From: Escherichia coli
Lineage (GTDB): Bacteria; Pseudomonadota; Gammaproteobacteria; Enterobacterales; Enterobacteriaceae
NCBI RefSeq assembly: GCF_011045215.1
Contig: NZ_CP049201.1
Length of the DNA stretch: 64,000 nt
Reading direction: 5' to 3' (one strand)
Below the pieces are notes generated by a model that saw nothing but the letters and a program-made list of their open reading frames with translations, did no database searches and was not told the origin of the DNA. The translations under genes and the position numbers were made by a program. Shown here in pieces: positions 41,012-44,130 of this stretch (position 1 is its first letter; each line of letters starts with the position of its first letter).

Positions 41012-42149
41012 TCAGGCGTCACGCGGTAACCCTTTTTCAATCACCCGAACCAGACGCTGTTTTTTCGGCAATTGCACTTCGACTATGCACGCATTTCGCC
41101 TCTCGATTTGCTGCGCCATCGCCCACGCTATGTGCTCATCAAGAAGTGGGTGCTCACCTTTGCGACTCTCCAGCGCCGCCAGAATCGTTTCATCCCAGGG
41201 CGCATTGCCTAATGCCACGGCGATATTACGCAGCCAGCGCAGGTGACCTATACGGCGAATCGCCGAACCTTCCGTGACTTTTAAAAACCTCTCTTCGCTC
41301 CAGGCGAATAACTCAATGAGTTCCGGTGCGTGTAGCGGCTTACGCGGGCTGAAATCGTCTTCTGTAGTGAGTTGTGAATAGCGATTCCACGGGCAGATAA
41401 GCTGGCAGTCATCGCAACCGTAAATACGGTTTCCCATTAACGGTCGCAACTCTTCCGGGATCGCCCCTTCCAGTTCGATGGTGAGATAAGAGATACAGCG
41501 GCGAGCATCGACGGTATATGGCTCGACGATGGCACCGGTCGGGCAAATCGTCATACAGGCCACGCATTTGCCGCATCCTTCCTCGACTGGTTGATCCACG
41601 GGCAGCGGAATATCGACCAGCAATTCGCCTAAAAAGAAGAACGAACCGGCCTCGCGATTGAGGATAAGTGAGTGCTTACCTGTCCAGCCGAGCCCAGCTT
41701 TTTCAGCTAACGGGCGCTCGAGAATAGGCGCAGAATCGACAAACGGTCTAAAATTCAGCGAAACACAATGTTGCTGAATCATCTCGCCCAGCTTTTTGAG
41801 TCGGTTGCGCAGAAGTTTGTGATAGTCACGGCCCAGCGCATAACGGCTAACATAGCCGAGTTTGGGGTTTTTCAGCGTGCTGGCAAATGCGGCGTTAGCA
41901 GGAAGGTAATTCATCCGCACGCTGATCACGCGCAGCGTACCGGGCAATAACTCATGGGGGCGAGCGCGCAGCATACCGTGACGTGCCATCCAGTCCATTT
42001 CGCCGTGGTATTGTTTGTCCAGCCATGCTTGCAGTTTGGGCTCGGACTCGCTGAGATCGGTATCGGTAATACCTACCTGCTGAAAGCCCAGTTCCAGCCC
42101 CCACTGTTTAATTTTTTGCGCTAACTGATTGAGATCGAGGGGCTCTGAC

Positions 42150-42151
<2 letters not shown>
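41012..42151 (-). CDS. queG: Epoxyqueuosine reductase QueG (YjeS)
   Basis: Start [15 protein letters not shown]; 4Fe-4S cysteine motifs; ORF-track N-extension rejected. Confidence 0.9.

Positions 42152-44130
<1,979 letters not shown>

Follow-up and report, generated by a model that had tools for sequence, protein, structure and literature searches.

Divergent excludons, in which divergent neighbouring genes have 5'-overlapping mRNAs, have their paradigm in Listeria. In E. coli MG1655, 16 divergent excludons have been called with ExcludonFinder, and the queG-nnr pair is one of them, on the basis of RNA-seq signals in at least 50% of 58 transcriptomes (PMC12288877). The same study lists yjeV-queG-nnr as one of three noncontiguous operons in E. 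coli, a call made from RNA-seq coverage only (PMC12288877 Table 1). The locus also appears as cluster S-361 ('yjeS, yjeF'; U00096.2 4,391,754-4,392,109; class 5' overlap) in Table 2 of Huang et al. 2020, where it ranks in the top 20 by abundance among p19-captured RNase III dsRNA clusters of coding genes, and it recurs in dsRNA immunoprecipitation and among Conway's overlapping operons (PMC7373196). On the nnr side, Conway et al. 2014 described yjeF...rlmB as the operon of greatest complexity in their dataset, comprising 14 genes and 8 promoters. Overlap of the coding sequences themselves is rare between divergent genes, with 331 of 14,958 overlaps in 58 genomes and 457 of 42,055 in 338 genomes (PMC2174442, Lillo & Krakauer 2007; PMC2478687, Palleja et al. 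2008), and the long divergent overlaps examined in one survey were all start-codon misannotations (PMC2174442 / PMC2478687). The queG-nnr overlap stands in the standard annotation and its antisense relation has been catalogued, as divergent excludon and as noncontiguous operon; both were already known. What we add is modest, and consists of a comparative proof of the two starts, assignments of a −10 element for queG and a Shine-Dalgarno (SD) sequence for nnr, a footprint at synonymous sites, and junctions that have been split apart.

In the window, which is the 64,000-nucleotide stretch of E. coli DNA analysed here, queG (epoxyqueuosine reductase; 379 aa plus stop, from its ORF and translation) occupies 41012-42151 on the minus strand, and nnr (bifunctional NAD(P)HX epimerase/dehydratase; 515 aa plus stop, from ORF and annotation) occupies 42150-43697 on the plus strand, so that the two are divergently oriented neighbours, as in an excludon. 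Both start codons are drawn from the four bases of a CATG palindrome at 42149-42152, read directly in the sequence (...GGGCTCTGA C(42149) A(42150) T(42151) G(42152) ACGGACC..., and more widely ...GATCGAGGGGCTCTGA-CATG-ACGGACCATACAATG...). The queG ATG (42151-42149, minus strand) opens the 379-codon frame MSEPLDLNQ..., and the nnr ATG (42150-42152, plus strand) opens the 515-codon frame; positions 42150-42151 are common to both codons and constitute a 2-nt coding overlap. Translation from the annotated starts would give the N-terminal peptides (M)TDHTMK (Nnr) and (M)SEPLDLNQLAQK (QueG). The identical overlap is present in the PGAP/RefSeq annotation of E. coli PapM-32-1, J53, 536, and K-12 MG1655, in the last as queG c(4392928..4394067) and nnr 4394066..4395613, and K-12 shows no base difference from the window between −66 and +53 of nnr. 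[quoted passage not shown] A search for a longer palindrome around CATG gave nothing beyond the 4 nt forced by the geometry. At the other end of nnr, its stop and the tsaE start form a co-directional 29-nt overlap (tsaE ATG at 43669, nnr end at 43697), as in the K-12 annotation, which is unusually long for a same-strand pair.

Taking the evidence together, we consider it likely that the junction combines a 2-nt overlap of two real starts, queG and nnr signals embedded in the partner gene, and mutually antisense mRNAs. The head-to-head overlap itself is genuine and anciently fixed. Transcription of queG would proceed from an extended −10 element, TGGTATACT, in nnr codons 12-14, giving a leader of about 25 nt devoid of an SD, and nnr would be translated from Met1 by means of a GAGGGG SD encoded by queG codons 4-5. 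The plus-strand RNA of nnr would have a distant start, 335 nt or more into queG and perhaps as far away as yjeV or the tRNA-Gly unit beyond queG, so that the queG and nnr mRNAs would be mutually antisense and yield dsRNA cleaved by RNase III, which is to say a 'divergent excludon'.

We assessed how well the junction is conserved, computing for this purpose the overlap itself, sequence conservation, uniqueness of the starts, dual constraint at synonymous sites, and conservation of the −10 element independently of nnr. The 501 nt around the junction were found in 5425 of 5426 complete E. coli genomes. The 80-nt core (42116-42195) was 100% identical in 4831 of the 5425 (89%), whereas the surrounding 501 nt reached 99% identity or more in just 381; strain 536, which diverged most among the variants sampled, has just three differences (42125, 42129, and 42131), each of them upstream of the nnr SD. 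For wider comparison, 80 queG loci were taken from one-genome-per-species collections, and a start-codon alignment was built from 31 sequences, comprising 30 species (about 18 Enterobacterales genera) and the window. The CATG is invariant in this alignment. In all 30 species, QueG and Nnr could each be matched by tblastn from the first residue onward, and the geometry was identical, with locus position 2501 for queG and 2502 for nnr. We take the genera carrying the overlap to belong to Enterobacteriaceae, Yersiniaceae, Erwiniaceae, Hafniaceae, and Budviciaceae, together with one member of Pectobacteriaceae. The CATG overlap is also present in two loci from outside Enterobacterales, Tolumonas and a gammaproteobacterial MAG, and in that broader set the two starts lie 0-108 nt apart, so that the tight pairing of queG and nnr is old and the full overlap a recurrent end state. 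On this comparative evidence, the CATG arrangement is more than chance.

The bases at the junction are also conserved where the encoded amino acids leave them free to vary. The major-allele frequency at third positions was 0.80 for queG codons 2-12, compared with 0.61 for codons 13-149, and for nnr it was 0.92 for codons 2-4 and 0.90 for codons 12-15, the corresponding value for codons 16-149 being 0.54. Within nnr codons 12-14, conservation at the third base was 97-100%. Some surplus of synonymous conservation is normal at the 5' end of any gene; judged from the alignment, the double duty of the junction bases is what leaves this footprint at synonymous sites.

The overlapping transcripts and the dsRNA are taken from the literature; the exact queG transcription start site (TSS), promoter activity, and any reciprocal regulation are what we infer. 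Given the geometry of the junction, overlap of the queG and nnr transcripts is unavoidable for any queG leader longer than 0 nt. To place S-361 in the window, we took the offset from U00096.2 to NC_000913.3 to be 1,977 bp. With this offset and the K-12 coordinates, the published cluster corresponds to about 41815-42170, a stretch in which queG mRNA and plus-strand RNA of the nnr leader occur together. In these converted coordinates, the right edge (about 42170) falls 6 nt inside the predicted queG TSS (about 42176) and is consistent with it, and the left edge puts plus-strand RNA at least 335 nt into queG. The yjeV-queG-nnr noncontiguous operon in turn implies plus-strand transcription entering from beyond the queG 3' end. 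There, the annotated 17-codon yjeV ORF (MRFYFYSQAVDESGVTR; 40976-41029, plus strand), the reported 5' member of that operon, overlaps convergently with the last 18 nt of queG (41012-41029). No plus-strand terminator was predicted between yjeV and nnr (41030-42150), queG included, which is consistent with the proposed yjeV-queG-nnr transcript. A weak terminator-like hairpin at 40932-40954 precedes yjeV. Further upstream, the context examined (40300-41000) contains a single tRNA-Gly(GCC) gene at 40667-40742, compared with three tandem copies in K-12 (glyV, glyX, glyY) and in PapM-32-1, the strain that matches most closely. Both K-12 flanks of the array anchored on that one copy in blastn, and the single copy could reflect either recombinational collapse of the array or assembly collapse.

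These findings can also be read neutrally, with the overlap a frozen by-product of genome compaction in which nnr was extended at its N-terminus over the queG leader, and with the antisense RNA and dsRNA as pervasive noise without reciprocal regulation. The start spacing of 0-108 nt in other gammaproteobacteria would then suggest a gradual drift of the nnr start. The N-terminal tail of Nnr is variable and lies outside the fold, the overlap has been lost in Pectobacterium, Brenneria, and Photorhabdus with both ORFs intact, and in the literature on this locus we found no experiment showing mutual exclusion. [quoted passage not shown] Alternatively, the junction may be a selected two-way control module, in which the queG promoter inside nnr and the antisense plus-strand RNA reciprocally tune queuosine-tRNA maturation against the nnr-tsaE-amiB-mutL-miaA-hfq superoperon through transcriptional interference and RNase III cleavage, the promoter having imposed on the N-terminus of Nnr a Ser-(Ile/Leu)-Pro-His that serves no other function, across the sampled gammaproteobacteria in which the genes are adjacent. 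The nnr superoperon includes two tRNA-modification genes. We consider such a module doubtful.

We scrutinized the beginning of nnr for the promoter of queG. About 35 nt into nnr, a block AGT-ATA-CCA-CA (42183-42193), which reads TGTGGTATACT on the queG strand, is nearly invariant. It contains TGGTATACT (42191-42183, minus strand), with TG at 42191-42190 and the hexamer TATACT at 42188-42183, so that a TG, one base, and a TAnnnT hexamer follow each other as in an extended −10 element; the whole lies in nnr codons 12-14 (Ser-Ile-Pro). In 63 of 79 gammaproteobacterial loci, a TGnTAnnnT motif preceded the queG start by 25-75 nt, mostly with the T of TG at −40, against a background of 4.2% per 51-nt window (binomial P ~4e-71, a value that is not corrected for phylogeny and overstates independence because the loci are related). 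The motif was kept in 18 of the 28 loci where nnr is not adjacent and where it stands in non-coding DNA, and it is therefore an element of queG rather than a constraint from the Nnr peptide. Nine Vibrio loci lack it. In seven of these (L048, L052, L055, L059, L061, L062, L068), the stretch from 30 to 70 nt before queG contains a repeated GGATCTTAACGGATCT-like element, which may be a different promoter or an operator.

No match to a −35 element was seen for the queG promoter, as is common among promoters of the extended −10 type. A generic sigma-70 scan that required both hexamers returned no promoter in 41700-42600, so that the call depends on the extended −10 element. From the position of that element, we predict that queG is transcribed from inside nnr codons 12-14, with a TSS at about 42176 on the minus strand (NC_000913.3 ~4,394,092) and a U-rich 5' leader of about 25 nt, GUUUUUCUUCAUUGUAUGGUCCGUC (42152-42176, minus strand), which would lack an SD and lie entirely within nnr codons 1-9. 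A bidirectional promoter at this site was considered and rejected. In its plus-strand reading (AGTATA/TATACC), the element is without a T in position 6 of the hexamer and falls on the downstream side of the nnr ATG, and plus-strand RNA starts 335 nt or more upstream. Through CAT, the conserved codon for His4 of nnr, the predicted leader contains a minus-strand AUG at 42159-42161, 10 nt upstream of the queG AUG; it is out of frame and opens a 17-codon frame overlapping the queG start. The AUG is present, yet nothing supports its translation, and we did not retain it as a uORF.

Junctions that have been pulled apart are informative on the nature of the block. In Pectobacterium and Brenneria, a gap of 148-149 nt (L026, L031) or an insertion of 1.2 kb (L034) stands between queG and nnr. 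On the queG side, the extended −10 element is kept (TGGTAACAT or TGGTAAAAT at −40/−41) and the nnr frame is broken (in L031, 4 codons are followed by a stop). Once relocated, nnr kept the MTDH.../MADQ... N-terminus in L026 and L031 and acquired a different one in L034, and its SLPH codons drifted to DLPD or VLPC, with no −10 reading left. In Photorhabdus, the motif was likewise kept without an adjacent nnr. The pattern at the split junctions is what would be expected of two superimposed functions released by duplication or insertion.

These observations bear on whether the AGT-(A/T)TA-CCA-CA block could instead reflect selection on the Nnr peptide Ser-Ile/Leu-Pro-His, with the queG promoter located further inside nnr. 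The peptide is indeed conserved wherever nnr abuts queG, outside Enterobacterales too, and neither a −35 element nor a hit in the generic scan speaks for a promoter. Against this, TGnTAnnnT stands at an equal distance from queG in non-coding DNA in those 18 of 28 loci; at the split junctions, it is queG that retains the motif, and the peptide has degenerated in the Nnr that was relocated; in Nnr, the peptide belongs to an N-terminal tail that is not part of the fold common to TM0922 and AIBP; and the dsRNA cluster ends just inside the predicted queG TSS. We therefore regard selection on the peptide as very improbable, and favour the extended −10 element of queG as the explanation of the block.

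The signals for nnr were examined on the opposite strand. An SD sequence, GAGGGG (42137-42142, plus strand), is located 7 nt before the nnr ATG and inside queG codons 4-5 (Pro-Leu). Its duplex with the anti-SD, at −7.2 kcal/mol, falls in about the top 6% of random window positions, and it is near-invariant across Enterobacterales, queG synonymous sites included. A GATC (Dam) site at 42133-42136 adjoins this SD and is itself near-invariant in Enterobacterales within GAGATCGAGGGG (queG codons Asp6-Leu7). It had been proposed that the promoter and ribosome-binding site of each gene must lie inside the coding sequence of the other. This holds for three of four elements, namely the nnr SD, the predicted queG −10, and the predicted queG leader; it does not hold for a queG SD, as queG has none that is recognisable (−2.2 kcal/mol), and the nnr promoter need not lie within queG.

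An nnr promoter inside queG is plausible rather than required, as it was located neither by sequence nor in the literature. Synonymous-site conservation and conserved TAnnnT motifs in the 31 sequences allowed none to be assigned within queG, and the papers on the operon or promoter context of yjeF gave no promoter position. Met and Trp codons account for the conservation peaks at queG codons 53 and 60-61. Only two −10-like sites were recurrent, TAAAAT at 41749 and a site at 41818 that reads TGTGAT in E. coli; they occurred in 19 of the 31 sequences and had no proper −35, and no nnr promoter was therefore assigned to them. In L026, L031, and L034, the relocated nnr is preceded by TGCTAATTT, TGCTAAGTT, or TGCTAACTT, an extended −10-like element whose hexamer ends at about −33 to −36. 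It appears homologous to a conserved GCTAAC block in E. coli queG (42118-42127, GCGCTAACTG, codons 9-11), where the counterpart hexamer, TAACTG, is without a final T and the TG is misplaced. The element may be a proximal nnr promoter or a remnant thereof.

Since divergent overlaps are the rarest class and the long ones surveyed were start-codon misannotations, both starts needed testing. Both ATGs are invariant across the 31 sequences. Upstream of nnr, an in-frame stop is found at codon −2 (L007, L021, L037) or −6 (L017, L018), and upstream of queG, at codon −3, −4, or −6 in five species (L005, L021, L032, L033, L037). Downstream, other genera carry Leu, Val, Glu, or Lys in place of Met6 of E. 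coli nnr (ATG 42165). In nine species, nnr codons 2-25 contain no in-frame start whatever, and almost no species has a downstream queG start within 39 codons. Free energies of SD pairing were −7.2 kcal/mol for nnr Met1, −3.2 for nnr Met6, 0 for the upstream TTG, and −2.2 for the queG ATG. In the alignment with 5D08, a tagged chain of B. subtilis QueG, residue 6 of QueG falls opposite residue 30 (about native residue 2); a PDB search with the N-terminal 120 aa of QueG alone gave no match, and full-length QueG did match. The homology of Nnr to T. maritima TM0922 starts after an N-terminal tail of about 8 extra residues. No queG or nnr entries were present in the supplementary tables of Cappable-seq, SMRT-Cappable-seq, TRAINSPOTTER N-terminomics, or tetracycline ribosome profiling, the locus lying outside the coverage of the TSS tables.

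An annotation artefact, in which one gene starts elsewhere (nnr at Met6, ATG 42165, or at TTG 42129; queG at an upstream GTG) and no coding overlap exists, could appeal to the misannotated long overlaps, to the in-frame ATG at codon 6 and TTG 7 codons upstream in E. coli nnr, and to a soil MAG (L019) whose CATG ATG is out of frame and whose Met6-equivalent is in frame, but it is highly improbable given that Met6 is variable and replaceable, the TTG is missing in many species, stops lie 2-6 codons upstream of nnr Met1 and 3-6 codons upstream of queG in five species each, Met1 is the sole invariant candidate with an SD, and downstream queG starts are unconserved in a protein whose conserved fold begins at residue 6. 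The K-12-like starts assumed for both genes by the sequence-only reading are the only ones that fit the comparative data from the 31 sequences, and the start-codon overlap is real for that reason; by this comparison, both annotated ATGs are genuine translation starts. The soil MAG (Proteobacteria CTSoil_132) has a 1-nt insertion after the MTDH codons, at locus positions ~2486-2502, which puts its CATG ATG out of frame with the conserved SIPH and leaves the Met6-equivalent (MKKNPASIPH) in frame; either the nnr start was shifted downstream in that lineage, or the assembly is in error.

With its starts validated by comparison alone, the locus exemplifies, cleanly and with good conservation, the least common type of bacterial gene overlap. 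It shows a promoter and a ribosome-binding site written into the codons of the neighbouring gene with a measurable footprint at synonymous sites, and Pectobacterium and Brenneria show how such double duty resolves once the junction is pulled apart. In practical terms, synonymous recoding or deletion in the first 15 codons of nnr or the first 5-12 codons of queG probably disturbs the other gene. The overlap opens no new biological question.

Compared with described systems, queG-nnr resembles divergent excludons in being a pair of divergent neighbours with 5'-overlapping mRNAs and dsRNA processed by RNase III (PMC12288877, PMC7373196). Most excludons, however, overlap only in their UTRs across intergenic DNA, by a mean of about 95 nt in E. 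coli (PMC12288877), whereas queG-nnr has no intergenic DNA and its coding sequences overlap; its membership in the class rests on the published overlapping transcripts. It shares with short divergent overlaps of coding sequences the use of common first bases, which forces initiation signals into the coding sequence of the partner, and it differs from the long divergent overlaps in being 2 nt long, with both starts validated by conservation across five families. As the noncontiguous operon is outlined in PMC12288877, which cites Saenz-Lahoya et al. 2019, queG is flanked by the co-transcribed genes yjeV ... nnr of the opposite strand, and the long transcript is antisense to the whole of the intervening queG. 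Finally, the predicted queG promoter is like other extended −10 (TGn) sigma-70 promoters in its TGnTAnnnT sequence and its weak or absent −35; it stands about 7 nt ahead of the start that is inferred and some 40 nt from the ATG. Unlike the usual extended −10 element, it would lie inside protein-coding sequence, and because of this location each of its predicted bases would also be constrained by nnr codons 12-14.
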